A DNA stretch of 64,000 nt from Candidatus Adlerbacteria bacterium (GTDB taxonomy: Bacteria; Patescibacteriota; Minisyncoccia; Phycocordibacterales; SBAW01): positions 171,138-235,137 of the forward strand of contig JAPLUW010000001.1 in the NCBI GenBank assembly GCA_026397405.1, read 5' to 3'. The position numbers were made by a program, and so were the translations under genes. Numbering within the stretch: position 1 is the stretch's first letter; each line of letters starts with the position of its first letter. The notes under the pieces were generated by a model. That model had not been told where the DNA came from. It saw only the letters and a list, made by a program, of their open reading frames with translations, and did no database searches. Shown in pieces: positions 12,532-51,273 of the stretch.

Positions 12532-12568
12532 AAAAAGAAAAACCTCCAGCGCCCGAAGGCACTGGAGG
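12532..12568 (-). terminator. Intrinsic terminator of high-GC cassette A (also serves recA on the other strand)
   Basis: Perfect hairpin cctccag-cgcccgaaggca-ctggagg (12543..12568) followed on the minus strand by T-tract (plus-strand aaaaagaaaaa 12532..12542). Confidence 0.6.
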
Positions 12569-12593
12569 TGATTGTGGCCATGAAGCCGAGAGA

Positions 12594-13025
12594 CTACTTG
12601 TCGGCCATCGCGCCCTTGTTGGCATAGGCCCGCTCGAGCATCGCTGCCAGGCCACGAGGAACCTTGGGCTCGGCGCCGTCGGTGACGTCGTAGGCCGCCG
12701 CGAAGTCGACGTAGGACTGGCGCTTCGCCTTGCTGAGCTGATCACGGCTGCTGTAGAGCGACAGATAGGCCGCGTCGACCTTGTGGAAGACACGCAACTT
12801 GTCATCGCCGATGGTCACGAGGCGCGTCTGCGCAGTGGCCAGGTCGGCATGGCCGTCGAGCAGGTGCGCGAACCGTTCCTTGCCGATCAGGCCCTTCTTG
12901 GCCATCAGCATGTCGATGGCAGCACAGATCGAGTCGGCGACGGAAACCGGTGGAAGGCTTTTCACGAGCCGATCTTCGTACGTCGCGCTCTTCTGCGGCT
13001 GACCAGTCATGGGCTTGTCGGTCAT
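12594..13025 (-). CDS. Hypothetical cytoplasmic protein encoded by compositionally foreign (high-GC, GC3-rich) cassette A
   Basis: 143 aa ORF MTDKPMTGQPQKSATYEDRLVKSLPPVSVADSICAAIDMLMAKKGLIGKERFAHLLDGHADL...; codon usage (GCC/CTC/GAG/CGC/ATC) unlike neighbours; RBS GGAAGGA upstream. Confidence 0.6.
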   Translation of the reverse strand: MTDKPMTGQPQKSATYEDRLVKSLPPVSVADSICAAIDMLMAKKGLIGKERFAHLLDGHADLATAQTRLVTIGDDKLRVFHKVDAAYLSLYSSRDQLSKAKRQSYVDFAAAYDVTDGAEPKVPRGLAAMLERAYANKGAMADK

Positions 13026-13044
13026 TTGTCTTCCTTCGTTGTGT

Positions 13045-13120
13045 GCGGGGACATCCCCGCGACTCGTTACGTCCGGATATGGACAAGAAGCAATATAAAT
13101 TACTAGTTAAAAGAAGTCAA
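13045..13120 (-). promoter_or_regulatory. Near-consensus sigma70-type promoter plus 5'-UTR palindrome driving cassette A
   Basis: Minus strand: -35 TTGACT (13120..13115), 17-nt spacer, -10 TATATT (13097..13092); 7-bp-armed palindrome GCGGGGA-ca-TCCCCGC at 13045..13060 between -10 and RBS. Confidence 0.45.
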
Positions 13121-16040: not shown

Positions 16041-16080
16041 AACCAGAAAGCAGAAAGGCGAATCATTTGAGTGATTCGCC
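16041..16080 (-). terminator. Intrinsic terminator of high-GC cassette B
   Basis: Perfect 9-bp hairpin ggcgaatca-tttgag-tgattcgcc (16057..16080) followed on minus strand by T-rich run (plus aaccagaaagcagaaa). Confidence 0.55.
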
Positions 16081-16116
16081 TGGGCGTTTTAAGGAAACGC
16101 TCCTAAACCTTAACTT

Positions 16117-16347
16117 TTACCAGCCGAACTTGCGTTCGAACCAGTCGCTGGTGATCTCCCAGATCCAGGCCCCGAGAGCGAGGGGTCCCATAATGGCGAC
16201 CAGGACGGACACCGTCCGCAGCCACACATTACAGAAGATTGTGCTGCGCTGCATGCAATAGTCCTGCCAGTGGATCATACCGCCGAGGCCGAAGCCAAAG
16301 GCAATCATACCGACAAGGCCGATGACGAGAAACAAAATCGCGCGCAT
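16117..16347 (-). CDS. Small two-TM membrane protein encoded by high-GC cassette B
   Basis: 76 aa MRAILFLVIGLVGMIAFGFGLGGMIHWQDYCMQRSTIFCNVWLRTVSVLVAIMGPLALGAWIWEITSDWFERKFGW; GC visibly higher than neighbours; RBS GGAGAA. Confidence 0.5.
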   Translation of the reverse strand: MRAILFLVIGLVGMIAFGFGLGGMIHWQDYCMQRSTIFCNVWLRTVSVLVAIMGPLALGAWIWEITSDWFERKFGW

Positions 16348-16369
16348 AACATTTCTCCGTGTTGGCGAT

Positions 16370-16454
16370 ACTAGGCGGAATTGCCTAGTGTCGCAGGGAA
16401 ATCAACGTACGTGAACTCTGTATATATCATACTACTATCTTTATATTTTGTCAA
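16370..16454 (-). promoter_or_regulatory. Near-consensus sigma70-type promoter plus 5'-UTR palindrome driving cassette B
   Basis: Minus strand: -35 TTGACA (16454..16449), 17-nt spacer, -10 TATGAT (16431..16426); palindrome ACTAGGC-ggaatt-GCCTAGT at 16370..16389 in the 5' UTR. Confidence 0.45.
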
Positions 16455-16517: not shown

Positions 16518-17969
16518 TTAGTGGATTGGAGTCGAATAACCCATCTCTTCTTCCAGCTCTATCCCCGCCTCTTCGAGTGGTTTATGCATCGTTTTGCGTA
16601 ATGGGAGTTCGGGTAGGAACAATACGAGGAAAAACGCTGGCACGACAACTGCCGCGGCAATTAAAAACGTTGTTGGGAGTGCCGCGCTTAGTGCCATACC
16701 GCTTGCGAGCCGCGCGTTTACGAGGCCGCCAAAAAACGCTCCTCCAACCGACGCACCAATACTGCGGAACAGCTGCACCGACGCAGTCACCACGCCAAGT
16801 TTTTCCTGCCCAAAGGCGTTTTGCACCACGATGTTAAACACCGGCAGTGTGATACCAAGCCCCGCGCCCATAAATATCATCTTCAAAATTATTTCCATTT
16901 TTGTGCTGTCGGCACCCATGCGTGAAAACAAAAACAGACCCACAGCAACCATCACCACCCCGCACACGACCAGCACTTTGTATTTGCCCGTGCGCGAAAC
17001 AATCTGCCCCGACAGGGCGCTCATGACAACAATACCAAGCATCAGCGGCGTCAAAATAAGCCCCGCGTGCGTTGCGCTAAAGCCGGCCACTTGCTGGGCA
17101 AAGAGCGGCAAGTAAATAATCGAGCCAAACATTCCAATAGCGGTTAAAAACACCGAAGATACAGAGATTGAAAATGCACGGTTACGGAACAACGACAGCG
17201 GCAACACTGGGTCTTGTGCGCGTTCTTCCACAAAGATAAATGCAACAAACGCCGCGAGTGCTGCGGCAAACAGGCACTGTATCGTGAAGGAACCCCACGC
17301 GTACGTGCTGCCGCCCCACACAAGTGCCAACAAAAAAGGCACAAGTGTCGCACCAATTAAAAACGCACCGAGGAAGTCTATCGGATACTTTTTTTGCACA
17401 TGCTTAATGCGCGGCAGCGTTAGTGCAATGACCGCAAGCGCCAAAAGCCCGAGCGGGATGTTGATATAAAATATCCAACGCCACGAGTACGAGTCGGTTA
17501 TCCATCCGCCAAGGAGAGGCCCTGCAACGGAGGCAATACCAAACATGCCGCCGAGCAGGCCCATCCACTTGCCGCGCTCGGCCGGCGGGAAAAGGTCACC
17601 TACAATGGCAAACGAGTTGACCATAATCGCCCCGCCGCCAATACCCTGTATTGCGCGGAACGCGATCAACGCAAACATCGACGTTGCCATACCCGAAAGT
17701 ACGGAACCGACGAGGAAGATAACGATGCCAAAGATATAAAAAATGCGACGGCCGTAAATGTCGGAGAGTTTGCCGTACAGCGGCACGGTTACGGTCGAGG
17801 CCAGCATGTATGCGGTAAAGACCCACGACAAATGTTCCATGCCGTGCAGGTCGGCAACAATACGCGGCAGTGCAGTTGAGACAATAGTTTGGTCGAGGGC
17901 TGAAAGCAGCATGGCAAGCATCGCCCCGCACATAGCGGCGACTTTTGGGTTGCGTAAAAATGTTGGCAT
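16518..17969 (-). CDS. MFS transporter, DHA2 (EmrB/QacA-like 14-TMS drug:H+ antiporter) family
   Basis: Start placed at [21 protein letters not shown]; [10 protein letters not shown]...[28 protein letters not shown] motifs; ORF-track ORF extends to 18056. Confidence 0.8.
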
Positions 17970-18011
17970 CGCAGTAGTATACCAAATTGGCCTTTTTACT
18001 GCCTGTTTGGG

Positions 18012-18050
18012 CAAAAAGATACCCCGAGTGTTGGAGATACTCGGGGTATC
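18012..18050 (-). terminator. Strong intrinsic terminator of high-GC cassette C
   Basis: Perfect 12-bp hairpin gataccccgagt-gttggagat-actcggggtatc (18018..18050) followed on minus strand by TTTTT. Confidence 0.65.
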
Positions 18051-18068
18051 TTCCAACGCTCGGGGCGT

Positions 18069-18605
18069 TTACTTCTGCTTGTCGATCGGCCGGCAGGTCT
18101 CGTCGCCGGTGCCGGCGTGCATCTTGGTCTGGCCCGCCGGGCACACAGCCGGCGGCTTGGCGTCGGCTGTCTTGCCGACGCGCTTGGTGTCGAGTTCGAA
18201 CTGCTCGGCCATCTTGCTGAGCTTCTCGACACCGAAGCGCTTCCGGGCCTCGATAGCTCCCATCAGGAGCTTGAGGTCCGACTCGAGCAGCTCCCTGGTC
18301 GAATAGAACTTGTCCGCCCCGAGCAGGCCGAAGTGGAACTGGTCCAGCTTGGTGCCGTTGGTCTCGTTGGTAGGACAGACCTCCGACTTCACACGCAGCG
18401 ACTTGACCGTGTCCGGCCGGCCGAATACGTCCTTCGTCCAGTCGAGCACGGTCAGCTTGTGCTCGGTATAGGGGTCGCAGTCGGCAGCGAATGCCGGCGA
18501 CACGTCGACCATCGCCAGAAAGGCGATGGTCGCGAAGACGAGCCGGAGCGGCCTGCCCTCGAGATACTCCCGGACGCGCCCGATGGCGCCAATGAAGGTG
18601 TTCAT
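18069..18605 (-). CDS. Secreted Cys-containing hypothetical protein encoded by high-GC cassette C
   Basis: 178 aa; signal peptide ...LRLVFATIAFLAMVDVSPAFAADCDP; five Cys; approx 64% GC with GC3-rich codons, unlike flanking tatD and MFS genes. Confidence 0.6.
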   Translation of the reverse strand: MNTFIGAIGRVREYLEGRPLRLVFATIAFLAMVDVSPAFAADCDPYTEHKLTVLDWTKDVFGRPDTVKSLRVKSEVCPTNETNGTKLDQFHFGLLGADKFYSTRELLESDLKLLMGAIEARKRFGVEKLSKMAEQFELDTKRVGKTADAKPPAVCPAGQTKMHAGTGDETCRPIDKQK

Positions 18606-18633
18606 CTTTTTCTCTCCACATGTTGCAACGCGT

Positions 18634-18705
18634 AGGGCCGAAATAGCCCTTTAAACCGTTGATACTACCTCTACTATTATAGCACCCTTTGGTGCTACTT
18701 GTCAA
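18634..18705 (-). promoter_or_regulatory. Consensus sigma70 promoter (overlapping 3' end of tatD) with spacer palindrome and 5'-UTR hairpin driving cassette C
   Basis: Minus strand: -35 TTGACA (18705..18700, inside last codons of tatD), 18-nt spacer containing palindrome GCACC-aaag-GGTGC (18695..18682), -10 TATAAT (18681..18676); hairpin AGGGC-n7-GCCCT in UTR (18650..18634); RBS GGAGAG. Confidence 0.5.
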
Positions 18706-19543
18706 GTCTAAAAATACGCTTAGAATTAAGGATTATTTGGGCGGCCATCGCCTCTTCAGTAATACCTTTTATACCTGCCATGGCCTTTACCACTTCCTGC
18801 ACATGCATGGGTTCGTTGCGTTGGCCGCGAAATGGCACCGGCGTAATGTAGGGCGCATCGGTTTCTGTCAGCAACATGTCGAGCGGCGTATTTTTTACCA
18901 CCTCGTCGTAGTCATGGGTAAACGTAAGCACCCCGGTAAACGAAAGTGTAAAACCTAAATTTAAAAACTGTTGCGCAATGTCCCAGTTCCCTGCAAAAAA
19001 GTGCACGTCGCCCTGTACTTTGGCGTGTGTTTTTAAAATCTCGAGCGCGTCTTTGTATGCGTTTGCATCACTCCCGCTTTGGTGGGCTCCGTCGCGGATA
19101 TGCAGCATCAGTGGTTTACCCAACTTGTTTGCAAGTTCGATATGCTGCACAAAAACTTCCCTCTGGAGTTGTTTGGTGTCTTCTTCTAGCCGGTAATAAT
19201 CCAACCCGCATTCCCCTATCGCAATCACTCTGTCTGACTTTCCTAATTCTTCGTACGCAGCAAAATCAAATTTCTCACCTCTTGATGTAAATGCTTTCCC
19301 CTCCCCTCCCAATTCTTTTTCATCGTGGTACGACTTTGCTGTATGTACCGGGTGCAGCGCTACACTTGCATAGACGTCGCCCATTTCTTTTTCTGCACAT
19401 TCTACTGCTGCACGCGAAGTGTCCAACTGGGTTCCAACCAAGTTCATCCCAACTTCTGCTTCGCGAGCACGCACAAACACCTCGTCCCGGTCTGCGTCGT
19501 ATGCAGCAAACTGCACGTGCGTATGTGCATCAAAATATTTCAC
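18695..19543 (-). CDS. tatD: TatD-family metal-dependent DNase/hydrolase
   Basis: Probable GTG start (VKYFDAHTHVQF...); HxH, GECGLDY, LHIRDA and ETDAPY motifs of TatD family. Confidence 0.8.
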   Translation of the reverse strand: MKYFDAHTHVQFAAYDADRDEVFVRAREAEVGMNLVGTQLDTSRAAVECAEKEMGDVYASVALHPVHTAKSYHDEKELGGEGKAFTSRGEKFDFAAYEELGKSDRVIAIGECGLDYYRLEEDTKQLQREVFVQHIELANKLGKPLMLHIRDGAHQSGSDANAYKDALEILKTHAKVQGDVHFFAGNWDIAQQFLNLGFTLSFTGVLTFTHDYDEVVKNTPLDMLLTETDAPYITPVPFRGQRNEPMHVQEVVKAMAGIKGITEEAMAAQIILNSKRIFRLDK

Positions 19544-22091: not shown

Positions 22092-23498
22092 TTAGGAGTT
22101 TATTTGGTTTTTGATGAACGCAGCCAAGTCAGAAACTGCCATGCGCTCTTGCTCGCCGGTGTCGCGGTGGCGCACAGTTACCGTGTCTTTTAATTCAGGT
22201 TTTTCTCCCAAGGTGTCAAAGTCGACAGTAATGCACCACGGCGTGCCAATTTCGTCCTGCCTGCGGTACCGCTTGCCGATGTTGCCGTTATCGTCCCACA
22301 TAATTTGTGGAATTTCTTTTTTAAGCGCCACGTACACTTCACGCGCTTTTTCTACCAATTCTGGTTTGTTTTTGAGCAATGGAAATACTGCCGCCTTTAC
22401 AGGAGCCACGTGTGGAGCAAGTTTCAATACCACACGCGTCTCCCCTTCCATTTCGTCTTCGTGGTACGCATCACACAATACTGCAAGGAAGACACGCCCC
22501 ATACCCATTGATGTTTCAAGAATCCACGGTATGTACTTCTCGGCCGTAGCAGGGTCGGTATATCGCAAATCAACACCGGAGAATTTCATATGTTGAGAAA
22601 GGTCATAGTCAGTACGGTCATGGATACCCTCAACCTCGTCGAACCCTGAAGGAAATTCATACTCAATATCCCATGCATCTTTTGCATAAAAAACAAGATT
22701 TTCGTGCTGCTTAAATCGCAGTTTTTTCTCACTGATACCGAGCGAAAGATACCAGTTCAGGCGTTCTTGTTTTAGCGCTTCGTACGCATTTTTATTTTCG
22801 TTTGGACGTATAAAAAGCTGCGTATCCGCTTGCTCAAACTCACGAGTTCGAAAGAGAAAGTTACGCGGCGAAATTTCATTACGAAACGCCTTACCTATTT
22901 GTGCAATGCCAAACGGAATCTTTGGCTGCATAGTGTCGACGATATTTTTATAGTCGAGATAAATACCCTGACATGCCTCCCCAGGCAAATATACAGGCTC
23001 ACTTCCCTCCGACGTAAAATCACCGAGGTTACTTTTTACCAGCAAATTAAAAGCGCGTGCGCGGGTAAAATCTTTTTTACCACATACAGGGCATTTGATT
23101 TTGTCGCGATACTGGTCAAACAAAGCATTAATTGAATCTTCGGACATTTTTTCATCCGCTTCAACATTAAGAGCTCCTAGTTCTTTGTCGACGCGAATAC
23201 GCGCGTGGCAGTTACGACATTCTGCAAGAGGGTCTGCAAAACCACCCACATGACCGCTTGCCTCCCATACTTTCGGATGTTTGAACATCCCAGCATCAAG
23301 ACCAAAATAATTTTCTTTACTATAAACGTTGGCATTCCACCACGACTTTTTTATATTGTTTAAAAGCTCTACACCTCGGGGACCAAAATCATAAATTCCC
23401 GCCAAGCCGCCGTAAATTTCTGAACCTTGGTATACAAAACCGCGTCGCTTGCACAGCGAGACTATTTTTTCCATCACGTTTTGTTCTTTTTCAGACAT
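22092..23498 (-). CDS. glyQS: Glycyl-tRNA synthetase (class II, homodimeric alpha2 type)
   Basis: 468 aa; RGFVYQGSEIYGGLAGIYDFGPRG and class II motifs; C-terminal anticodon-binding domain. Confidence 0.9.
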   Translation of the reverse strand: MSEKEQNVMEKIVSLCKRRGFVYQGSEIYGGLAGIYDFGPRGVELLNNIKKSWWNANVYSKENYFGLDAGMFKHPKVWEASGHVGGFADPLAECRNCHARIRVDKELGALNVEADEKMSEDSINALFDQYRDKIKCPVCGKKDFTRARAFNLLVKSNLGDFTSEGSEPVYLPGEACQGIYLDYKNIVDTMQPKIPFGIAQIGKAFRNEISPRNFLFRTREFEQADTQLFIRPNENKNAYEALKQERLNWYLSLGISEKKLRFKQHENLVFYAKDAWDIEYEFPSGFDEVEGIHDRTDYDLSQHMKFSGVDLRYTDPATAEKYIPWILETSMGMGRVFLAVLCDAYHEDEMEGETRVVLKLAPHVAPVKAAVFPLLKNKPELVEKAREVYVALKKEIPQIMWDDNGNIGKRYRRQDEIGTPWCITVDFDTLGEKPELKDTVTVRHRDTGEQERMAVSDLAAFIKNQINS

Positions 23499-23504
23499 AG
23501 AAAA

Positions 23505-25451
23505 TTACTGTTTTGGGGCGACCTGGCCCATGCCATCGGTAAATCCAGTTTCTTGTAGTGCTGTGGTTGGCCCTGCAGCAGTCGCCTGTACACCAACTTG
23601 TGCGAATCTATCTTGGCCCGAGAGGGTCGCTGGGCTCGTCAATGCCGGGGTCTGCCCTACTTGAGACAAGCTGGCAGAAAGCCCTACTTGGAACTGTACG
23701 GTGCGAGTAGGTGCAGAATACCCCGCCCCCGCTTTAATGTCACCAAGAGCCCACGTCACCGTACGGCTTGGCCCGTCGTAGGTAACACCACTCCCTGCAG
23801 GTGCCGCGATAAACGTAACGTACGGCGGCAGCGTTGCCGAGACGACTCCGTTTGCAATAGTATTTGAAGAATTCGTGACCGTCCAGGCGACAGTGTACGA
23901 CGTGCGCTGGTCGGCAACTGGCGGCATAGGCCCCACATTTTGCAGCGAGCCGCTAAAATGCAGCGCCTTGGCAGTGAGGGCAACTATAGACGACACAAGC
24001 AGCTGAGTTGTTGCCGCAGAAGACACCGTTTGCGGCACGTTGTCTTGGCCCTGTCTCACTCCTTTTATTTTAAGCGCGAGGTCGATGGTCGGGTTCGAAT
24101 AGAGCGTGCCTCCGGTTGCCGTTGGGAGGGTGGTAAAAGTAAACGTCAATGTACCAGTGCCTCCGGGCGGCACCGACGCCAATGCAGCCTCTTGGTCTTT
24201 TGACCACGTAATAGTGGAATTAGCCGACTGATAAAAACCGTTTTGGGAAAGGACCGAACCTGTGTCGAGCATTGGCCCCGACAACGACAGTGTTGCCTCA
24301 ACATTGGAAACAGAGTCGGGTAAATTGTTTGTCCAGGTGATAATTCCTTGCATTAAACCTCCTGGTGTAACCGCAATAGTTTTATTTGTTTTGCCGTTAA
24401 CCGCAATGTCTGCGCTGATAAATGCGCGCCGCACCGTAAGGGTTTGCGGCACCGAGAGGAACGGGACTTTTATCTGCGTGTCGGTTTGGTCAGAATCGGA
24501 GCCACCTAAAAAGTAAAAAACTCGGGCGTCGCCGTCTTGACCGTCTATAGTTCCCACAATGTGTATCGTTTTAGATACTCCCGGCGACATAGTCCCCAAC
24601 CGCCACACCGTTCCCCCGGCAACCGGAGCAGGAGCCGCTTTTGCAATCGTAAACCCAAACGGGTACTGTGCCTGGATTACCACATCACTAACCGGAGTAA
24701 GTGCATTGCTCTGCACCGTTAGGTCCATAGCAAATTGCTGGCCGGCAATTGCCTCGCTTGGTGCCGACACGTTAATAGAAATCGGCGACGAGCCCACTGT
24801 AAAATGAGTGGAGGCCTCTTTTTCAAACACAGCATTAGACCCTTCGATACTGTACTGGAGGCTTATAGTTACGTCCTGCGGCGTCCCTTCCTGGCCATAA
24901 AAAATTGCTTGCGCAGTGCGGGTTAATTGCTGACCCGCAGCTATGGAACCAATAGACACCCTGTCGTGTGTCAGTCCTTGCGAAGGAGCGAGAGGGTCAC
25001 GTGTACCTACGGGGTAGTTAATAATGAGGTCGACTAGTTTTAGGTTTGCTTGGTTGCGATTGTTAATGAGTACTTGCAGTGTCGTTGCCTTACCACCGTC
25101 AACAACCGACGGCATCACTACTTGCAGGTCAATATTTTGCGGCGAAATACTCCCTCCGCCGACAAACAACATGTATGCAGCAGCAGCAGCGGCAATACAA
25201 AAAAATACAACCGAGCCGATGAAGAATTTTGTCGTAAACGACATGCCTGGTTTTTTTATACGTGGGGTCAATGTGTATGTTTGGGCAGGTGCGTGGGTGG
25301 GAGTTTCAACAGGCTCAGTCCAATGAGAGGCTGTATGGACGTCACTAAACGTCAAAGGTGTACGTTCTGCCGTGTCCACAGTAGGCGCGTCTTTCCTTGA
25401 ATAGAGCGCGGTCTTAAGGCCGTCGATGGAGTCTTTTTTTTCGGCCGCCAT
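23505..25451 (-). CDS. Hypothetical single-pass membrane protein with large extracellular beta-rich domain
   Basis: Start placed at MAAEKKDSIDG to avoid overlap with recO; TM helix FFIGSVVFFCIAAAAAAYMLFV; ~550 aa extracellular region of unknown fold. Confidence 0.5.
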   Translation of the reverse strand: MAAEKKDSIDGLKTALYSRKDAPTVDTAERTPLTFSDVHTASHWTEPVETPTHAPAQTYTLTPRIKKPGMSFTTKFFIGSVVFFCIAAAAAAYMLFVGGGSISPQNIDLQVVMPSVVDGGKATTLQVLINNRNQANLKLVDLIINYPVGTRDPLAPSQGLTHDRVSIGSIAAGQQLTRTAQAIFYGQEGTPQDVTISLQYSIEGSNAVFEKEASTHFTVGSSPISINVSAPSEAIAGQQFAMDLTVQSNALTPVSDVVIQAQYPFGFTIAKAAPAPVAGGTVWRLGTMSPGVSKTIHIVGTIDGQDGDARVFYFLGGSDSDQTDTQIKVPFLSVPQTLTVRRAFISADIAVNGKTNKTIAVTPGGLMQGIITWTNNLPDSVSNVEATLSLSGPMLDTGSVLSQNGFYQSANSTITWSKDQEAALASVPPGGTGTLTFTFTTLPTATGGTLYSNPTIDLALKIKGVRQGQDNVPQTVSSAATTQLLVSSIVALTAKALHFSGSLQNVGPMPPVADQRTSYTVAWTVTNSSNTIANGVVSATLPPYVTFIAAPAGSGVTYDGPSRTVTWALGDIKAGAGYSAPTRTVQFQVGLSASLSQVGQTPALTSPATLSGQDRFAQVGVQATAAGPTTALQETGFTDGMGQVAPKQ

Positions 25452-25470
25452 TCCAGAAGTATACAATACC

Positions 25471-26052
25471 CTACAGTCCGCTTGCCCCGAGAGACTCATT
25501 AATAACGCGTATAAGCGCCGGACGGAGCGCCCGCGCTTCTGTAGTTACCGTAGGAGAAAATTCATTGTTTGCAACAAACGGCATACTTATTTCAGTCTGT
25601 TCCAAATATCCCAAATGCGAAAGCACGCGCAGTACAAGTACGCATTCTGCATTCTCAATCTCTGCCTCATCCAAACCCCCTGCCATATACGCAAACCCTC
25701 CACGCACAGTTGTATACAATTCTGGCACTGGCTCTTCCCCGTTAATAAGCCGCAGAAGCAAACGTGCAACACGACCCGATGCCCGACGCTGTAAAAGTGT
25801 CTGTCCAAAATACGCACGCGACAACTGCTCGACACCGGTTAACTTCCATTCATAGCGACCACGCAGCATGGCAAACCTACCCTGCGTCAGGGGCTCCAGC
25901 CCGTAGCGCAACTTCGAATGTTCAACACGGGCCGAACGAGCCGACGCACGCACCAGCCCCACATCTTTCGTTAGGAGAAAGATACTCGTATTGGCCTCAC
26001 CAATACCACGCTTCCCAAGCACTATGCCGTCTGTTGCGACAATGGTATGCAT
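25471..26052 (-). CDS. recO: DNA repair protein RecO (short form)
   Basis: 193 aa; N-terminal OB-fold region DGIVLGKRGIGEANTSIFLLTKDVGLV...GRFAMLRGRYEWKLTGVEQL typical of RecO. Confidence 0.7.
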   Translation of the reverse strand: MHTIVATDGIVLGKRGIGEANTSIFLLTKDVGLVRASARSARVEHSKLRYGLEPLTQGRFAMLRGRYEWKLTGVEQLSRAYFGQTLLQRRASGRVARLLLRLINGEEPVPELYTTVRGGFAYMAGGLDEAEIENAECVLVLRVLSHLGYLEQTEISMPFVANNEFSPTVTTEARALRPALIRVINESLGASGL

Positions 26053-42830: not shown

Positions 42831-43236
42831 CTTTTTGCCCGTTGGCTCCAGTCGCAAAGCGACATAGTCGCCTGCCTCCTCAAAAAGCCTCTGGCCCTCG
42901 CCTATTCGCTCCGCGGGCTCGGGTCCAGTTCGATTCCCAGGCAAACGCTCGCGTTGCAAAATACCCCGACCAAATGGCCGAGGTATTTTGTCACCGTGGG
43001 TGCCTGACGGTTCAAAACTCAAAACCAATAGTAGATTTCCTTATGGGCTTGAGTTCTGCGGCGTCTAAATTGCACCACTTCCAGAATAGGCTTATTTCTG
43101 CACACAAGCAAACATAGACTAATGTTTCTACTTGTTTTTATCTTCCCAGTCCCATTTGGCAAGCAAATCAAAGATTTTCGCTAGTTGAGCTATATCCTCT
43201 TCCTTAAATTTTAAATTACTATCTTTCTGCATATCA

Positions 43237-44106
43237 CTACAAAGTGGACTCGTAGGAAGCTTTTACAAGACTGAAAATATAGTCAATATCGCTCTCAGGG
43301 GTAAATTTGACCACACCTCTAAATCCCCACCTGTGAGTAGTCACGTCTCTTACAATGCCTTTACTATCTCCTTCATAAGAAGGATCCCTGAGAAGAAGCT
43401 GTATCCAAGCTCCCTTAAACTCAAGACGGGTAAAACTTTTAGTTGTGCGATAAGTGATTCCGGTTTTTTGTCCAGCCACTTCTTCTACTGACGGAAGTTG
43501 GAGAAGTTTTTCTTGCAATGTAAGGAATGCTTTCTGCATTTCTGGAGTAGCTATATCAAGATGATAGTCTAGGTTATATTCGGTCTCCTCCTTTTCTTTT
43601 TTCGTTATACGTTTTTTCTCAGGTCGAGGGCTATATTCATTCTCAATATTAAGAACGTTTCCTTCATAGAGGGAATATGTTTTCAGCTCGACTCTTTGAT
43701 GGGTAGGAGCTGCTTCTCTAGTTCGCTTATCGAAACCTTGTGCTATTAAGATGACACGTGGATTATCCCAGATTACATCCATCTCCTTCCCTAATTTGTT
43801 TTGAACCAATAGTTCAAATTCTCGTTTATTTTTGAGTAGCCACCCTAAATACGAAAGGCTTTGCGTAAAAATTTCCTTATTTTCATGCCATTTGTATTCA
43901 ATAATTACAGGAGAATTATTTTCATCGATTCCCAAAGTATCAATTCTTCCGTCTGTAGTAGGATACTCTTTTTCAAGGAACCTCACACCAAGTATTTCCT
44001 CTAAATTTTCTGCAAAAAAATCACGCAGATTAAACTCATTACCAAAACCTTCTGTTTTAAGACTAAGCTGCTGAACTTTTTTTGTATCTATTTTAAAAAT
44101 AGCCAT
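43237..44106 (-). CDS. PD-(D/E)xK nuclease-fold protein (NucS/Mrr-like N-terminal core, unknown C-terminal domain); candidate restriction/defence endonuclease
   Basis: 289 aa; GRIDTLGIDENNSPVIIEYKW fits D...(E)xK catalytic arrangement. Confidence 0.5.
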   Translation of the reverse strand: MAIFKIDTKKVQQLSLKTEGFGNEFNLRDFFAENLEEILGVRFLEKEYPTTDGRIDTLGIDENNSPVIIEYKWHENKEIFTQSLSYLGWLLKNKREFELLVQNKLGKEMDVIWDNPRVILIAQGFDKRTREAAPTHQRVELKTYSLYEGNVLNIENEYSPRPEKKRITKKEKEETEYNLDYHLDIATPEMQKAFLTLQEKLLQLPSVEEVAGQKTGITYRTTKSFTRLEFKGAWIQLLLRDPSYEGDSKGIVRDVTTHRWGFRGVVKFTPESDIDYIFSLVKASYESTL

Positions 44107-44112
44107 ATAAAT

Positions 44113-45528
44113 TTGAATTATGAGCTGGGCAGAAGTTGTTACCTCTATACAATATTTTTTACATTATACATCCATCAAAGTATTGCAAAAAAGCTAGAAC
44201 ATGGCATAGTTTTGGCACATATGCACGAGATAAAGTTGCCGAAGGTACTATTCCTAGTTTTAGTGATAGCACGCCATTTTCACAAAAAGCATATCATAAA
44301 TACAAACGATCTAGCTGATTTGGCCAATAAGTTTGCCAGTGAGCTAGTTAGGCTCAAAAAGACAAAGAAGGACTACAAATCCTTGGAGGATACTAAGTTT
44401 GGAGGCCTGCGAGGTAATTTTTCAACCGTGCTCACTTTTCGTGGCATGGTAAAGAGAGGTAGCCGCATTATTTCTTACTATGGGATAGGTCGGGACGACC
44501 GCATTCTTAATGCACTTCTGAAAGGAGAGATCGTTTTACGCGAATCAGACTTTACAGCTCATACAAACAATGAAAAATTGAAGGATCTACTTGAAACAGA
44601 AGCCCATCTGTTAAATGTCCGTGAGGATCAGGCACATATAAAGTTGCGTCTTGAAAAAGGAGATATCCCTCTCAAGAGGGATGATGTGAGTTTCCCAAAA
44701 GAATCTGTCGTATATAGTCCATCGGGACAATATTTCATACGTGGTTTATTCAACAATTACATAAACCGAGGGAAAAACTTGGTGGAGTACAATATTACAA
44801 ATTTGTGGTTTGGAACAAAGTTTAAAAAGAAAAATATACATCTCCTCTTAGCTGTACCTTCTGCATCTGATTCGTGGGATAAAATTTATGCAGTAAAAAA
44901 CGAGGAACTTATTAAACACAAACCACTTCTTTTGATAGTGGATGTCGATAAATTGTCCTGTACGGACAAAGATGGAAATAATTATAGGCTTTATCCCCTC
45001 GAAGAAGCCCTATTAAGTTTCTCAAAAGCAGAAGAAAATATTTCCGAGCGACTAGCCTATAATTCCAAAAAGGTGGTTGAGGACAATTGTGAAGATGAAG
45101 TTGAGGATAGAGAGATGCAGGAAGATGAATTTTCTATATTTCTCGAAAAGTTCTTACACTGGGGAAAGCTTTTTTCTATAGATAAGAAAGATGTGATCGA
45201 TATAAAAGTCTCAAGTTCCGGAGGTCCCGATGTTCGCTTAATATTTTCTGGAGGTACAACGCAGGCTTTAGAGTTGGAGCATAATTGGAAAAACTATATT
45301 GATCACGGTCATCCCACTAACGGGGCATTCTCTAACTGTTGGATATTTGCAGAAGAAAATTGGGATCCACAGAGAATCCTAAAACTCTTCAGAGAACTCA
45401 AAAAAATACATGGTGTACGTATTCCGGATGTTTTTCTTTGTTTGGATAATGGGGTACGAAAGGCTTATAGAGCCAATTGGGATGAAGAGACCTTCGAAGA
45501 AATAGATTTAGATTTTCCTATCTCTTAA
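44113..45528 (+). CDS. Large hypothetical protein, candidate restriction endonuclease/specificity partner of the adjacent methyltransferases (true start possibly at 44221, MHEIK...)
   Basis: 471-aa ORF only 6 nt from the divergent nuclease gene start, so an internal start is likely; C-terminal PDVRLIFSGGTTQALELEHNWK weakly resembles a PD-ExK core; 4-nt overlap with downstream Dam-like MTase. Confidence 0.4.
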   Translation: MNYELGRSCYLYTIFFTLYIHQSIAKKLEHGIVLAHMHEIKLPKVLFLVLVIARHFHKKHIINTNDLADLANKFASELVRLKKTKKDYKSLEDTKFGGLRGNFSTVLTFRGMVKRGSRIISYYGIGRDDRILNALLKGEIVLRESDFTAHTNNEKLKDLLETEAHLLNVREDQAHIKLRLEKGDIPLKRDDVSFPKESVVYSPSGQYFIRGLFNNYINRGKNLVEYNITNLWFGTKFKKKNIHLLLAVPSASDSWDKIYAVKNEELIKHKPLLLIVDVDKLSCTDKDGNNYRLYPLEEALLSFSKAEENISERLAYNSKKVVEDNCEDEVEDREMQEDEFSIFLEKFLHWGKLFSIDKKDVIDIKVSSSGGPDVRLIFSGGTTQALELEHNWKNYIDHGHPTNGAFSNCWIFAEENWDPQRILKLFRELKKIHGVRIPDVFLCLDNGVRKAYRANWDEETFEEIDLDFPIS

Positions 45529-46565
45529 TTTTCCCCCGTTACAAGCACTTCTCTGATATTTTTTATAGTGCCCCTACCCTGCATAGAATGAGAGTGTTTA
45601 AAATAATATACACGAACTTTTTTAAAATATTTTTTACATATGGCTTTTAATTCCGTTGAAGTTATCAACCCACTCTCTGAATAACTAATTGCTACTTTCG
45701 CGCCTATATTTGAGGCGTGGCTTACTATAAAATCAAATTCTCCACTTACTTTGCTTGGGTAACAAAAATCTGACTGAAAACGATCTTGTCTATAAAGCCC
45801 CTTGTGACTAAGCTTGGGGTAATCATATTTGACTGCTGTTTCTAGCAAATGGTAGAAACGGGAATATTGTGCAGGAGAATATGGCGGGTCAATATATACA
45901 AGCTTCACTCCCCTCAAGTATTTTTTGATATTTTTATCTGTAAATAAATTTCTGTAATCCATCGAAACTACCTTGTTTTGGAAATTAGAGAAAAGTATGT
46001 GGTTTTCCAATAATTTTTTTGTAAATGCATCAAGGATACTCAGCTTTCGAAGAGTTTTTAATCGGGGGTGATCCTTGGGCATATATTGCGCAAAATGTCC
46101 GGGACTAGATTGACAATGACCCATAGCATATATCAGCGCGGTAAGATAAATCGCTTTTTTCTTTGTATCTTTGACTTTATCTATGGCAAACCGGACATTG
46201 TCTATTTCCACACATTGCTCTTTAGTGAAATAAGTATCTGTGTAGTATTTTTGAAATAGTTTGTAAGTTTTATTTTTAGAAAGATGTGGATATATATCTC
46301 TTTCAAGATCTTCAGCAGATAGACGTACTTTGTTGTTTTCTATTCTTGCGATACCTATAACTTTTGAATACTCTTGTACATCATTGCCAATGATGGGATG
46401 GTTTGGCTTCAATGCATATCCTATCGAATGAGTGCCCGCCATCAAATCAAGAATTTTATCTCCTTTTGAAACCATTCTTTCGAGAATTGGGGCTATGCGA
46501 TCAAGTAATTTTATTTTAGACCCCATATATCTCATGATATATGTCTTGGGATATTCCTTTTTCAT
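45525..46565 (-). CDS. Dam-family (D12 class) DNA N6-adenine methyltransferase
   Basis: 346 aa; motif I-like YMGSKIKLLDRIAPIL and catalytic DPPY. Confidence 0.8.
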   Translation of the reverse strand: MKKEYPKTYIMRYMGSKIKLLDRIAPILERMVSKGDKILDLMAGTHSIGYALKPNHPIIGNDVQEYSKVIGIARIENNKVRLSAEDLERDIYPHLSKNKTYKLFQKYYTDTYFTKEQCVEIDNVRFAIDKVKDTKKKAIYLTALIYAMGHCQSSPGHFAQYMPKDHPRLKTLRKLSILDAFTKKLLENHILFSNFQNKVVSMDYRNLFTDKNIKKYLRGVKLVYIDPPYSPAQYSRFYHLLETAVKYDYPKLSHKGLYRQDRFQSDFCYPSKVSGEFDFIVSHASNIGAKVAISYSESGLITSTELKAICKKYFKKVRVYYFKHSHSMQGRGTIKNIREVLVTGEN

Positions 46566-47893
46566 TCTTCTTTCCGGAATATAAGAATCCAGTCATGATT
46601 CATAATCCCACTGTACGAATTCCTCGAGGTGAGTAAGGATCTTGAGTTTTCATCAAAGCTATCCTTGAAACAAGCTATGGATTTTAGATTGAGATCCTCT
46701 GCAATTTGCAGAAAATGCTCGTGGGTTTTTATTTTTTCATTTCTAACTGTACTATCACTAATCTTCATTACTAAGTGGCCATTCTTTTTTAGAACTCTGT
46801 TCATTTCACTCATACTTTTTCGCATATCGTTAAAATATTGAGAAACGACTTTAGCCATTTTGTGCTGACCATCTCTCTTAAGCTGAAAGATTTGTTTATC
46901 TAATTTAGGAAAGCCAGTCAGCATTGTATCCTCCAAATCTTTCTTATAGAATCGTTCTGTGCCTACAAGTTTTGTATCGAGAGAAAGGTATTCCTTCTGG
47001 TTACCTATAAAACCTAACCATCCCATTTCTATTTTTAAGGTTTCTAAGTAACGTATAGAGCTTATATACGGAGGATTCACCACTATTAAATCAATTCCTC
47101 TTATCTCCTTCGGAAGATCTCTCGAATCGCCTTCTATTGCTTTTATTTTTGCCCTATTAACGGGTAGAGCGTCTAAATAGTCCAACCGGCGCTTTATTGT
47201 TCTCGTAAAAGACGCCTTGACGTCTATTTTTCTTTTACCTTCGGCGTCTAATTTTCTCAGACGCTTACTATAGCCAGGAAATACATGTCTGGGATCTGCA
47301 TTTGAAACACCACGTAGAAATGCTGAAAAAGATGCCAGGAAGAAATCCCTAACGTCCCCCTCTGGTAGCTCCAGTATATTTTTCCTTAGTCTAAGAAGAT
47401 CTTTTTTCGCAAAATCCTTAAACCAATGGTCTATATTTATGCAATAGAATTCAGACTTAGTGGAAAGCTTTGACTTATCTGTATCTATTTTTTTCTGTAA
47501 TTTCTCCCAAGTCTGCTCTACTATTTTTCTATCAATCTTTGTGGTTTTTACTTTAGAAATGAACGTTGCTAACGGATTAATATCCACTCCAAAAGCATTC
47601 CTATTTAAATTCTTCGCCTCTAGAAGAGAGGTGCCAGATCCTGAAAAACTATCGAGTACATAATCTCCTTCCTTCGTGAAATTCTTGATAGCGAAGCCTG
47701 GTATTGCGGGTATAAGTTTGCCGAAATATCGGTGAAACGAATGCATTCCATTTCGATGAATTTCTTTCTCTTTATTTAAGAGCGCCTTGTAGTATTTATT
47801 TGCTGTGATTTCAACGTTCATTTTTGTAGAAATCGCTGGAAAAACATCGGAGGTAATTAATGTCTCGACGTCTGGCTCTCGAAGTTTACTCAT
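46562..47893 (-). CDS. DNA methyltransferase (N6-adenine or N4-cytosine; alpha-type motif order)
   Basis: 443 aa; AdoMet motif DSFSGSGTS, catalytic NPPY (LIVVNPPYIS); 4-nt overlap with Dam-like MTase. Confidence 0.75.
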   Translation of the reverse strand: MSKLREPDVETLITSDVFPAISTKMNVEITANKYYKALLNKEKEIHRNGMHSFHRYFGKLIPAIPGFAIKNFTKEGDYVLDSFSGSGTSLLEAKNLNRNAFGVDINPLATFISKVKTTKIDRKIVEQTWEKLQKKIDTDKSKLSTKSEFYCINIDHWFKDFAKKDLLRLRKNILELPEGDVRDFFLASFSAFLRGVSNADPRHVFPGYSKRLRKLDAEGKRKIDVKASFTRTIKRRLDYLDALPVNRAKIKAIEGDSRDLPKEIRGIDLIVVNPPYISSIRYLETLKIEMGWLGFIGNQKEYLSLDTKLVGTERFYKKDLEDTMLTGFPKLDKQIFQLKRDGQHKMAKVVSQYFNDMRKSMSEMNRVLKKNGHLVMKISDSTVRNEKIKTHEHFLQIAEDLNLKSIACFKDSFDENSRSLLTSRNSYSGIMNHDWILIFRKEE

Positions 47894-48078
47894 ACCTCGT
47901 AATTATACCTCTTTTAAGATAATTGGCTCCGACATTTTTGCCTGAAATTTGGTAAATTTGCTGAAGACATAGAGTTTTACAACAATTCCATGAAATGGAA
48001 AGCATTGTTTGATTAAATTCCCTATCAGTAGCGATATCTCCAATGTAGAGCTTTAATTAACTTGAAACTTGAATATCT

Positions 48079-48393
48079 ATGGAATCTACTGCACTGAAAC
48101 AGAATGCGTGGGGAGGAGCTAGAGTTGGGGCTGGCGCTCCCATTTCCTCAAGAACTCTGGAGACTCAAAAGATACGTGAGCTAATGCTGAAACGCTTGAA
48201 GCCTCGTGCAAAGAAAGTCTTCGATGCTCTCATAGACGCTGCTGAAAATGGAGACGTTGCCGCTACTCGACTACTCTTTGAATATTCTCTTGGCAAACCA
48301 AAAGAGCAGATTGAGCACACGGGAAATATGGGGATCCTTCACTTAATTTCTTCGTTAGAAAAACAAACTAATGCTCGAACGACAGAGAGCTAA
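48079..48393 (+). CDS. Hypothetical small basic protein (island cargo)
   Basis: 104 aa ORF; no recognisable motif. Confidence 0.3.
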   Translation: MESTALKQNAWGGARVGAGAPISSRTLETQKIRELMLKRLKPRAKKVFDALIDAAENGDVAATRLLFEYSLGKPKEQIEHTGNMGILHLISSLEKQTNARTTES

Positions 48394-48913
48394 CTATAGT
48401 CGCCATTTCATTATGTAGGACTGTGAGATCTGTGGAGGTAGCTGAGGGAGGAAGTATGGCAATACTCAGGCGTTCTTTGTTATCCGGCGTATTAACTATG
48501 AGCCAGTCAACATATTTCCCATATTTAACAGATATTGCCTGCTGACCACCAACTTGTATCGTTTCGTATCCTTGGGACACATCGTAGCCAGAATTAGAGC
48601 TTTTAAGCCAGTCTAGAGGCGTTTCAGATGGACTAATCTTTCTAGGGCTAATAACTATTGCTCCTGCCTCCTCAATAGCCTGATTCTTCGTGGAGGCAAT
48701 TGGCAATACATATATCCAACCTCCGTCAGTGTTGTTTGTATCATTACCAACAAGAAAATTATCTGCTGAATATTTGAAGGAGAAGCCAAATTCTGTTGCG
48801 TTATAGGTTTGGATATTTTCTGCCTTGATTGGGTGGTGGAGAATTAAAAAGATTGAAATGAATGCCACCATTATCAGAATCAAAAAGATTAAAAAACTAT
48901 GTCGTTTTTTCAT
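48368..48913 (-). CDS. Hypothetical membrane-anchored secreted protein (island cargo)
   Basis: Start placed at MKKRHSFLIFLILIMVAFISIFLIL (signal anchor); ORF-track ORF extends to 48979. Confidence 0.4.
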   Translation of the reverse strand: MKKRHSFLIFLILIMVAFISIFLILHHPIKAENIQTYNATEFGFSFKYSADNFLVGNDTNNTDGGWIYVLPIASTKNQAIEEAGAIVISPRKISPSETPLDWLKSSNSGYDVSQGYETIQVGGQQAISVKYGKYVDWLIVNTPDNKERLSIAILPPSATSTDLTVLHNEMATIVSSLSFEH

Positions 48914-49302
48914 ACTCCAAAAACAGTTATATACGCTGTTTTGATTACCCAAAAGATTACTACTAGGAAAAGAAACCAACAGAACAAACTCATTAGAAAA
49001 CTTCCAAGTGACTCTGGTTCTTGCTTCATAAACATTAGTTAACTAATAGTTCCAGAGGTGGAAACACAAATCCCACCGCTAGGAGGCTTGCGCCCTATGT
49101 AAGTTTCCCTACATAACATGCAACATGCCCTAACGATGGGGTTTCTATGTTGCATGGTTTTCAACCTTACCTCTGGACTCTTTCCAAAGGGTTAGGTTCT
49201 TTTCTCCCTATTCAATTGTCGAACCCCTTTAGTTTAACGTTCTTTTCAAAATGGCAAAGGAGGCTGTTTAGGAGCAGTTTTTGTGTGTACTATCAAAGCT
49301 AT

Positions 49303-50028
49303 ATGACATGGGTGTCAGATAAGAAAATTCTTGAGCATTTTAGTGATCTCAGAGAAAGGAAGGATTTTTTGAAGTTAGTGGCAAAAGTGCGCCACAATGC
49401 ACACCTTCCTTCTGCTGGCCTAGATATCACAAAAATCATAAAAGAGAATGGGCATTCTATCTTTTTTTGGGAAGCTCATGTATCTACGAACGATCGAAGG
49501 ATTATCGAAAAGGGCGCTAAAGAAATTTTGAAGAGACTTAATCTGGGACCGCATTTAGAAGAAATAATAATCTCTTATATTGCCAAGGGAGATGGTTATG
49601 ACAAAGGTTTGACTTCCAGTGTCTCCGTGACTGTTGGTTGTTTACTATCAGAACAGGACGATCACTTTCTCATGTATATCTATCCTGAGGCAACTCAAAA
49701 CCATACAATCCAGTTTCTGAAGGATAATTGGGACTACATAAAATATTGGCTCCAAGAAAAACATCCAGAGCGGCAAGCGTTGAAGGTTAAGAAGAGAACA
49801 CAGCGTGATCGAGATAGAAAAATTATCGAGCTTTATGATTGGGGAGTTCTAAAAGCTTCGGGAGTATATAACCTAAAAAACGCAAAAGTTTTTTTGGCCA
49901 CAAGAGGGATAGAAGTGGATGATGTTTTGGACATATATAAAAGTTTTAAAAGATTGAACTACGCACTACCCAAACCTGACGCTATCAAAAAGGTAGTTCA
50001 AAGATACAACAAACTTCGCAAGAGTTAA
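49303..50028 (+). CDS. Hypothetical protein (island cargo)
   Basis: Start placed at MTWVSDKKILEH; ORF-track ORF begins at 49147; AT-rich codon usage. Confidence 0.35.
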   Translation: MTWVSDKKILEHFSDLRERKDFLKLVAKVRHNAHLPSAGLDITKIIKENGHSIFFWEAHVSTNDRRIIEKGAKEILKRLNLGPHLEEIIISYIAKGDGYDKGLTSSVSVTVGCLLSEQDDHFLMYIYPEATQNHTIQFLKDNWDYIKYWLQEKHPERQALKVKKRTQRDRDRKIIELYDWGVLKASGVYNLKNAKVFLATRGIEVDDVLDIYKSFKRLNYALPKPDAIKKVVQRYNKLRKS

Positions 50029-50155
50029 ATTAGGGAAGTATTTTCAAAGGAAATATGTCGGCTGGCTGCCGACTCTTTTTATTTTACCGTCAGCGCATGG
50101 TCGAAATTAATAACAACCAAGCGCACACGACAGAACTTCAAGAAATTGAAGACTT

Positions 50156-50584
50156 TTGTGTGCGGTTGGCACCAGAACTCATCAAAATATGGAAGAGAAC
50201 GAAGAGCAGTCCATGAAAAGAATGGGCGAACTCATGCATACTCCTTCCTTTGTTGCAGACGACCCAGACGACGCAAAGTATTCACTAATTATGCACGGCC
50301 TCTGTAAAAAGTACGGAGTAAAAGAGCCTCTGGAGCGTCATATTTTTTCAATCATTGAAAATATGTCCAGAAATATGCTCTGTGTCTACAAATTAGAACA
50401 GTTTGCTAAATATTCAGGCGGCACACCCGAAGAGATAGAAAGGGTGCTTGAAAAGCTTGAACACCGAAACTGCATCGTCAGAGGTAAGGCAAAACAAACG
50501 AATGGTTGGAGATTGACTGAGGAAGTCCGGCGATCTGCAAAATGGTTTAAGGAGGCTATCAAACTGAAAACAAAACATGGGTAA
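50156..50584 (+). CDS. Hypothetical protein (island cargo)
   Basis: 142-aa ORF; internal Met at 50189 is an alternative start. Confidence 0.35.
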   Translation: MCAVGTRTHQNMEENEEQSMKRMGELMHTPSFVADDPDDAKYSLIMHGLCKKYGVKEPLERHIFSIIENMSRNMLCVYKLEQFAKYSGGTPEEIERVLEKLEHRNCIVRGKAKQTNGWRLTEEVRRSAKWFKEAIKLKTKHG

Positions 50585-50905
50585 AATCCTAATTAATTTT
50601 ATAACGAAGTTATAAAAAATTCTTAATTAAGCTTTTTTTAAAAGCTTCTTTATAAAAAAGCCCTAGGAAGGGAGGAAGGTTGATAAGTCTGGCGCTCCCC
50701 CGCTTCGCCTCAGAGGTTGTGGCTTCTTTACCTCCCCTAAGCCTCAAAACTGGTGTTTACGCAGAGAAAGCACGAAGGCTGGGAGGAATCACCACTCTGC
50801 ACAGGTTCCAACGTTCTAAGTGGTTTTACGCAGATTAAAAAAATTAAAAAACTCTGCGGTTTCCAGAAGGATAAAAATAACGAGGTTAACTTAAACAATA
50901 ACAAT

Positions 50906-51244: not shown

Positions 51245-51273
51245 AGGCACGTTAAAAACCAGATAAAATAATT

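Follow-up and report, generated by a model that had tools for sequence, protein, structure and literature searches.

A probable moron-like accessory unit encoding a predicted exported, fast-diversifying protein between tatD and rpsF in a Candidatus Adlerbacteria genome

The stretch analysed here, called the window throughout, comprises 64,000 nucleotides (nt) of a Candidatus Adlerbacteria bacterium (assembly GCA_026397405.1, contig JAPLUW010000001.1, positions 171,138 to 235,137). Next to tatD it carries a small gene for a 178-amino-acid (aa) protein; gene and protein are referred to as X and, together with their promoter, leader and terminator, they make up cassette C. We consider it rather probable, from the sequence, that X is an autonomous accessory unit resembling the morons of phages, that it occupies an insertion hot spot between tatD and rpsF, and that its product is a rapidly diversifying protein exported by the Sec pathway, presumably with a role at the cell surface or the host interface. 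The anatomy of the unit, its conservation pattern, its synteny, its composition and its lack of known homologues carry this reading. The features of the locus are as follows.

18700 to 18705, minus strand: -35 hexamer TTGACA, within the last sense codons of tatD (cTT GAC Aag TAG)
18680 to 18697, no strand assigned: inverted repeat TAGCACC-AAAG-GGTGCTA, a candidate operator or hairpin, covering the tatD stop, the spacer, the extended -10 TG and the first two -10 bases
18676 to 18681, minus strand: -10 hexamer TATAAT, with TGc before it forming an extended -10
18606 to 18669, minus strand: 5' leader of ~64 nt, with the start site placed ~7 nt past the -10
18650 to 18634, minus strand: leader stem-loop AGGGC-UAUUUCG-GCCCU
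18617 to 18612, minus strand: Shine-Dalgarno sequence (SD) GGAGAG, 6 nt upstream of the ATG
18069 to 18605, minus strand: open reading frame (ORF) of X, 178 aa
18486 to 18605, minus strand: signal-peptide-like N-terminus, codons 1 to 40, with a basic n-region, an h-region LVFATIAFLAMV, a c-region DVSPAFA and a predicted cleavage at AFA/AD (by inspection)
18069 to 18485, minus strand: mature protein, 138 aa plus stop, in which a beta-rich part (Cys43, Cys77) is followed by a long helix (~104-143) and then, at the C-terminus, by a hairpin CPxGQ...GTGDExC (Cys155, Cys171)
18013 to 18065, minus strand: compound intrinsic terminator with two mutually exclusive hairpins and U5 at 18017-18013

According to the mechanism that we propose, a near-ideal sigma-70-type promoter, with its -35 inside the final codons of tatD, would fire and yield an mRNA with a conserved leader of ~64 nt, bearing a stem-loop and a 5' SD-like element, which would probably stabilise or regulate the message. 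The GGAGAG would drive translation of the 178-aa precursor, which would be exported via Sec, with cleavage after AFA. The resulting mature protein (~138 aa), presumably held by a family-wide C43-C77 disulfide and an allele-specific C155-C171 one, would then act outside the cell, while transcription would stop at the conserved compound terminator.

The product of X is identical to the hypothetical protein NT019_00930 (MCX6819841.1) of a Candidatus Adlerbacteria metagenome-assembled genome (MAG), encoded on a contig of 495 kb, and its neighbours metG, tatD, a major facilitator superfamily (MFS) gene, rpsF, ssb and rpsR form a housekeeping chromosomal setting (metG-tatD / rpsF-ssb-rpsR). Its composition is the outlier that the original prediction had reported: the GC content of the ORF is 0.641, compared to ~0.48-0.53 in the surrounding genes, and GC at the first, second and third codon positions (GC1, GC2 and GC3) is 0.60, 0.42 and 0.90, compared to 0.57, 0.42 and 0.49 in a pool of 19 neighbouring core genes. 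The shift spans exactly the start codon to the stop codon, and the flanks, at ~45% GC, are homologous across the clade. The protein has four cysteines (positions 43, 77, 155 and 171) and not the five first counted. The data support X as a real, separately transcribed gene coding for a cysteine-containing protein with a Sec-type signal, both transcription and export being predicted. That it is a real gene is indicated by a frame-specific GC periodicity, by the conservation of the signal segment and of a 34-residue spacing between cysteines, by a ratio of nonsynonymous to synonymous substitution rates (dN/dS) below 1 and by a non-coding antisense profile. An antisense ORF is open in all homologues and was even preferred by one gene caller in a related locus (L090); it was rejected as a true gene, as its GC1, GC2 and GC3 of 0.86, 0.42 and 0.61 are those of non-coding sequence and it stays open only through the avoidance of A-ending codons.

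That the locus might be an artefact, namely a chimera of assembly or binning, or a non-coding, GC-rich insert with a spurious ORF, is a virtually negligible alternative. The sharp compositional boundaries, a Logan contig that stops at 18669 within the promoter and leader, and the choice of the antisense frame by a gene caller could be read in its favour. It is already refuted by another Logan contig, SRR20698652_2464, an independent assembly from another run that matches window positions 5493-26008 at 99.995% (1 mismatch in 20,516 bases). Assembly chimerism, which had been raised at the outset as a point to check, is excluded because this contig crosses both cassette junctions. Moreover, the homologous locus of the closest relative (L001 type; L001, L005 to L009, L086 and L090 denote the loci of relatives) was assembled independently by NCBI, Logan, ENA and JGI, and the sense frame has the signal peptide, the conserved cysteines and gaps that are mostly in-frame with respect to homologues.

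The conservation of X is best seen in the pairwise comparison of the window with the L001 type.

TatD protein: 90% identical to L001
MFS protein: 95.7% identical to L001, with 144 of the 184 differences at third positions
S6 protein: 88-93% identical to L001, depending on the alignment
Neighbour genes: dN/dS of 0.02-0.19
X overall: 51% identical to L001, dN/dS of 0.68
X codons 22-44 (signal h- and c-region): 87% identical to L001
X codons 45-144 (mature core): 39% identical to L001, dN/dS of 0.60
X C-terminal tail: 69% identical to L001

The signals for expression and export thus appear to be under strong purifying selection, while the mature part appears to diversify quickly. Invariant signals around a fast-changing mature part point to an interaction surface under changing selection, which could be exerted by a host, a competitor or a phage; such a contrast typifies proteins exposed at the surface or facing a host, a phage or a competitor. 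A diversity-generating retroelement was considered and rejected without a formal test, as neither a template repeat nor a reverse transcriptase lies nearby and changes are spread through the whole mature part.

Divergence from L001 is also uneven elsewhere in the window. The gene of a class II aminoacyl-tRNA synthetase (tRNA-synt_2b; window 22092-23498 versus L001 5119-6501) is 60% identical with a synonymous divergence (dS) of ~2.5, whereas ssb beside it has a dS of 0.04 and recO of 0.19; metG, too, diverges as a block in its 5' part (58-60% nt identity). This mosaic suggests frequent homologous replacement of gene-sized segments.

The non-coding parts of the unit are conserved far beyond what the flanking genes would predict. 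Counted from the -10 box up to the SD, a stretch that includes the first 51 nt of the leader, 62 of 64 positions are identical to L001, as are 58 of 60 in the terminator, compared to only 60-64% at the 4-fold degenerate sites of the flanking tatD and MFS genes (binomial P ~1e-10 for the non-coding conservation). This conservation is specific to the elements and is not a recent recombination tract, because conservation is lacking in the 12 nt that precede the start codon and in the 30 nt that separate the terminator from the MFS promoter. The conserved leader sequence is GTAGAGGTAGTATCAACGGTTTAA. Its hairpin, described in the original prediction as AGGGC/GCCCT, is indeed found at 18650-18634, and a stem-loop occurs at the same place in other leaders with changed stems, GGGC/GCCC in the window, GUGCC/GGCAU in L009 and GAACC/GGUUC in L007a (an unrelated 174-aa cassette of locus L007), the loops being alike (AUUYCGG or AUAUCGG). 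An SD-like AGAGGU lies near the predicted 5' end.

A strong terminator follows X as had been predicted, with arms of 14 nt instead of 12 and with a competing, longer hairpin. The hairpin proximal to the U-tract has perfect arms, AAGATACCCCGAGT and ACTCGGGGTATCTT (18052-18039 and 18029-18016), a 9-nt loop and then T5 (-25.0 kcal/mol), while the long one pairs 18065-18052 with 18035-18022 (minimum free energy of -31.5 kcal/mol). This three-arm layout occurs in six cassettes, those of the window and L001 and beyond them L007b (the X homologue of L007), L009, L007a and L006, with compensatory changes such as GUUGGA/UCCAAC versus GAUGGA/UCCAUC. The leader stem-loop and the terminator are evidently real RNA elements, because their stems change in a compensatory manner, covarying among five to six loci. 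Neither sequence recurs elsewhere in the window, and a search of 17900-18800 gave no relevant Rfam match at E<=10, but only a spurious sub-threshold RRE match. A ribosome terminating at the X stop might mask arm 1 of the long hairpin, because this hairpin begins 4 nt past the stop (blocked-fold test), and so favour the terminator proximal to the U-tract; such a coupling of termination to translation, modelled from the folds, seems distinctly unlikely.

The promoter stands out as strongly. TTGACA-N18-TATAAT matches the consensus at 12 of 12 positions, as initially claimed, and is the sole such match in the 18 kb scanned, for a chance expectation of ~0.02 per 64 kb (arithmetic). Its -35 precedes the tatD stop codon TAG at 18697-18695; the same hexamer is found at the same place in L001 and L009, the promoter of the latter being TTGACA-AATAGCACTTTATAGTGC-TATAAT, and L007 has TTGACG. 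The palindrome said to occupy the spacer is present at 18697-18680. Its exact core TAGCAC-N6-GTGCTA was found among 91 loci only at the X promoter, namely that of the window type, of the L001 type and of L009, with different centres (CAAAGG, TGTTTG and TTTATA, respectively); it is absent from L007 and L006, and the window harbors no second copy even with 2 mismatches allowed. The tatD stop, the extended -10 TG and the first two -10 bases account for all of the arms but the CAC on the left and a single G on the right, and no regulator gene adjoins X. From its position the palindrome is possibly an operator, and a hairpin at the 3' end of the tatD message is an equally good reading.

Two further observations concern this intergenic region. 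The 6-nt centre of the palindrome seems inverted between the window (18686-18691, CAAAGG) and L001 (9915-9920, TGTTTG, reverse complement CAAACA), which suggests a flip of the hairpin loop, as expected from hairpin-mediated template switching. The MFS gene has an extended -10 (TGgTATACT) that ends 6 nt before its ATG (window 17969-17990), and its mRNA thus seems to be leaderless or nearly so; in L005 (6850-6880) the tatD stop codon falls within the TATAAT corresponding to this -10. In this compact genome, overlap between a promoter and the end of the preceding gene seems to be common.

At the protein level, X shows by inspection the traits of a Sec signal peptide cleaved by signal peptidase I, namely a basic n-region, a hydrophobic h-region (10-15 residues) and small residues at -3 and -1. 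Basic residues of the n-region are R10, R12, R18 and R21, and the h-region includes the sole strongly hydrophobic stretch of the N-terminus, VFATIAFLAMV (Kyte-Doolittle score of 2.63). The signal peptide with cleavage at AFA/ADCDP, part of the original prediction, is thus supported by inspection; all X homologues have one N-terminal hydrophobic segment followed by a small-x-small site, with a cysteine 3-5 residues after it. A lipoprotein processed by signal peptidase II was rejected, as there is no lipobox of the L-[AS]-[GA]-C type with its cysteine at +1, and the first cysteine lies 3-5 residues past the AxA site (AFA-ADC, ALA-TEC, AHA-VTC). The 34-residue spacing of the first cysteine pair is identical in four homologues. 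The secondary structure given above for the mature part comes from an AlphaFold2 model with a predicted local distance difference test (pLDDT) score of 42. The homology and structure prediction proposed at first for the 178-aa protein led to no known family: neither X nor the two other cassettes of the window (A and B, see below) matched Pfam, NCBIfam, PHROGs or PADLOC, and a profile search of X against PDB sequences returned only noise (best E 0.55).

Relatives of X are very few. Among 5.8 billion protein clusters the only homologue is P0002, from another Candidatus Adlerbacteria MAG (51% identical), and 1.84 billion representatives scanned exhaustively with HMMER yielded just one more, P0003 (147 aa, 47% identical, E 5e-26). 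No homologue was found outside the tatD slot among the 1.84 billion representatives or in IMG/VR, and a metagenome scan gave only another copy of the L001-type allele. The gene order at P0002 is that of the window (tatD - X - MFS - rpsF - ssb - rpsR), and the P0003 gene lies 94 nt after tatD on a short JGI contig. The slot was surveyed in 80 GTDB relatives fetched via TatD; loci L005 to L009 belong to the closest subclade (TatD >=77% identical). L007b is a clear X homologue of 148 aa, or 134 aa from an internal Met (hidden Markov model (HMM) E 2e-10, BLASTP 3e-10), and between it and tatD stands L007a, an unrelated GC3-rich gene for a 174-aa secreted protein with the same kind of promoter. In L009 a further member is probable, though strongly diverged, judging from its position, its promoter and a weak similarity. 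In L006 the slot is filled by a 96-aa secreted protein sharing with X only the motif 'PCPEGQ', and in L005 and L008 there is no X and tatD abuts the MFS gene. The succession of tatD and rpsF is the ancestral neighbourhood among the 80 relatives, and the interval is apparently an insertion hot spot, because the gap varies from 32 to 4927 bp with a varied content of small genes. The X family itself appears to be new, very narrow and confined to the tatD slot.

These relatives bear directly on the origin of the GC-rich gene, which the original prediction held to be clearly foreign and derived from a high-GC donor. A recent horizontal acquisition, in which the GC3 of 0.90 would be a donor signature not yet ameliorated, would fit with the difference from the 0.49 of the neighbours, with a slot that is an insertion hot spot and lacks X in L005 and L008, and with cassettes A and B being insertions relative to L001. 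We nevertheless consider it quite improbable. Homologues sit in the same slot of related genomes of ~50% GC (the L001 type, P0003, L007 and probably L009), precisely the situation named in advance as contradicting a foreign origin, and they are GC3-rich as well: 0.87 in L001, 0.82 in L009 and 0.70-0.73 in L007b, depending on the start, for a core GC3 of ~0.45-0.51 in these genomes. No homologue was found in other taxa among the 1.84 billion representatives, the 5.8 billion clusters or IMG/VR. The shift is limited to the span between start and stop codons, with homologous flanks, and the promoter, leader and terminator are typical of the lineage. According to the trends of Muto and Osawa, GC1 and GC2 reportedly track genomic GC, so that a donor with a GC3 of ~0.9 is said to have a GC2 of ~0.48 and little lysine. 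The GC2 of 0.42 is native, GC1 is 0.60-0.61 versus 0.57 and lysine makes up 7.1%, unlike proteomes of ~65% GC.

The anomaly is moreover shared by small accessory ORFs unrelated to X, namely cassette A and its homologue, a 177-aa ORF in L005 (L005-177), L006-114, L007a and orf76. When 13 cassettes of the clade are pooled (1839 codons), GC1, GC2 and GC3 are 0.61, 0.42 and 0.84 versus 0.57, 0.42 and 0.49 in the core; lysine is the 7.1% just mentioned, and AAG represents 93% of lysine codons versus 29% in core genes. At 4-fold sites of the mature core, the window and L001 are identical at 7 of 17 (saturation expectation 0.43), and the window and L007b at 7 of 23 4-fold sites (expected 0.37). The extreme GC3 of X is thus, as far as codon comparisons can tell, maintained and is not the fading signature of an import, because synonymous sites are saturated without loss of GC3, which stays at 0.87-0.90 between the window and L001 alleles; had GC3 decayed neutrally for as long as the flanks diverged, its ancestral value would have to exceed 1 (Jukes-Cantor arithmetic, small n). 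There are two candidate causes: selection could act on the stability or expression of the mRNA, or gene conversion could be biased at a recombination hot spot.

The sole obvious mobile element of the window, at 43.2-52.9 kb, is AT-rich (GC of 0.34-0.43 versus ~0.48). This island (43200-52900) encodes D12-class and N6/N4 DNA methyltransferases, a NucS-like/DUF5655 protein, a small ORF with a resolvase domain and a 524-aa large serine recombinase; a LOOT RNA (RF03000, 70 bits) lies inside at 49082-49198 on the minus strand, and the island ends at a tRNA gene (52781-52852). It looks like a mobile element integrated at a tRNA. Another locally GC-rich part of the window (0.57-0.58) is the 3' third (~23.5-24.2 kb) of a 664-aa ORF at 23505-25499, which has a faint CLIPPER match and no NCBIfam match. 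It is not a separate cassette, because the ORF is 98% identical to its L001 orthologue.

Cassettes A and B are the two other GC3-rich mini-genes that lie with C within 6.5 kb.

12594 to 13025, minus strand: cassette A ORF, 143 aa, GC3 of 0.84, in a unit at 12542-13120
16117 to 16347, minus strand: cassette B ORF, 76 aa with two hydrophobic segments, GC3 of 0.79, in a unit at 16056-16454

In cassette A the promoter is TTGACT-N17-TATATT, the leader contains the hairpin GCGGGGA/TCCCCGC and the terminator has 12 bp; cassette B has TTGACA-N17-TATGAT, a leader hairpin and a terminator. A, B and C are alike in layout (strong promoter, 60-80-nt leader with hairpin, SD, terminator) and seem to belong to a single class of accessory mini-genes. 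Homologues of A are 72-73% identical, one of them lying at the same site in L086, between a sigma/anti-sigma-like locus and recA; a more distant relative occurs in L006, IMG/VR gave no match for A, and by eye its terminator closely resembles that of the different 177-aa ORF of L005.

Several alternatives to an autonomous accessory unit can be weighed against these observations. One, proposed at the outset, is a dispersed three-part system with a cytoplasmic (A), a membrane (B) and a secreted (C) component, co-acquired and co-regulated through a shared operator. Their proximity, GC3 and strong individual signals are what this idea explains, and it is nonetheless very improbable: the L001-type genome carries C without A and B, which are insertions relative to it, B has no homologue among 5.8 billion clusters, and the L086 homologue of A occupies its own sigma/recA site. 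When the three cassettes are compared, no promoter, operator, leader or terminator sequence is common to them, the palindrome is unique to C, and the searches of PADLOC, Pfam, NCBIfam and PHROGs matched none of the three.

It is unlikely, though less easily dismissed, that the slot draws on a swappable pool of cassettes, whose alleles or unrelated genes would be exchanged by homologous recombination at conserved ends while GC-biased gene conversion raises GC3. The conserved ends around a hypervariable centre would be expected, as would the mosaic kinship of the window allele, whose signal peptide matches P0002 while the N-terminal part of its mature protein is closer to P0003. The L007 gene for a non-homologous secreted protein, whose promoter and terminator are of the same type, the dS mosaic of 0.04-2.5 in neighbouring genes, indicating rampant recombination, and the site of cassette A, similar by eye with a related terminator and a diverged or replaced coding sequence, agree with it as well. 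On the other hand, no recombination breakpoints were demonstrated, alleles being few, and biased gene conversion is not known from bacteria belonging to the candidate phyla radiation (CPR). The conserved stretches are furthermore patchy, with a variable SD-to-start segment and n-region, a better fit to functional selection than to homology arms. A broader reading, possible if rather doubtful, would join several of these threads: the clade would possess a class of autonomous mini-genes in fixed slots between core genes, each made up of one small ORF, a promoter of consensus type, a structured leader and a compound terminator, with native amino acids and synonymous sites held at ~85-90% GC (genome ~48%) by selection on mRNA stability or expression or by GC-biased conversion, the compound terminator might couple termination to translation, and the member at tatD would be a secreted effector, directed at a host or at competitors, under diversifying selection.

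Several points also weigh against our preferred reading of X as a moron-like unit with an exported, diversifying product. Only three alleles are available with DNA, so that positive selection is not separable from relaxed constraint, and dN/dS is high but below 1. Secretion, expression and disulfides are predicted from sequence. The n-region, with ~21 aa before the h-region, is unusually long, and the N-terminus could be an uncleaved anchor. The membership of L009 is weak (pairwise E ~1e-3, HMM E 1.2), AlphaFold2 models from 2- and 3-sequence alignments reached pLDDT of 40 and 42 and gave no fold-based clue, and the GC3 bias could have either of two causes.

Several known systems resemble this unit. 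Phage morons are independent units with their own promoter and terminator and a deviant GC content, lodged as additions between genes that are conserved (Cumby, Davidson and Maxwell 2012, PMC3594210). Similarly, X has its own predicted promoter and terminator and a deviant GC, lies between genes that are adjacent in relatives and varies in presence. However, X is chromosomal, with no phage or prophage around it and neither a PHROG match nor an IMG/VR relative, and its GC shift affects synonymous sites only and has lasted through long divergence, which is not a simple mark of transfer. X is also similar to the secreted effectors and surface proteins of symbionts and pathogens, being small, with a Sec-type signal, cysteine pairs, a narrow lineage and a raised dN/dS; this is a functional analogy and no family assignment. 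Integron cassettes too are small single-gene units in a fixed slot, with different genes in different genomes, but the X slot has no attC, attI or integrase, and X units are each equipped with a promoter and a terminator, while a promoter is usually missing from integron cassettes.

The leader, for its part, recalls 5' mRNA stabilisers, which are known in Gram-positive bacteria, e.g., the STAB-SD of Bacillus cryIIIA. The SD-like AGAGGU at its predicted 5' end, far upstream of the real SD, and the conserved 5' stem-loop are the common traits; the likeness is a resemblance of sequence alone, L007a is devoid of the SD-like element and no Rfam family matched. The protein family is a new orphan, and the unit adds one more case to a kind already known; its unusual part is the maintained anomaly, restricted to GC3 and found across unrelated mini-genes.

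The case of X illustrates that the equation of GC-rich with foreign can mislead. An anomaly of GC3 only, maintained in unrelated mini-genes, is a natural case for separating selection on codons or mRNA from biased gene conversion, and the promoter, leader and terminator of X are ready-made expression elements for a lineage without genetics. CPR bacteria, or Patescibacteria, are believed to spend their lives attached to host cells, and the proteins at that interface are almost uncharacterised. X, small, to all appearance strongly expressed, predicted to be exported and diversifying faster than the surrounding genome, is a concrete candidate for such a role at the host interface.

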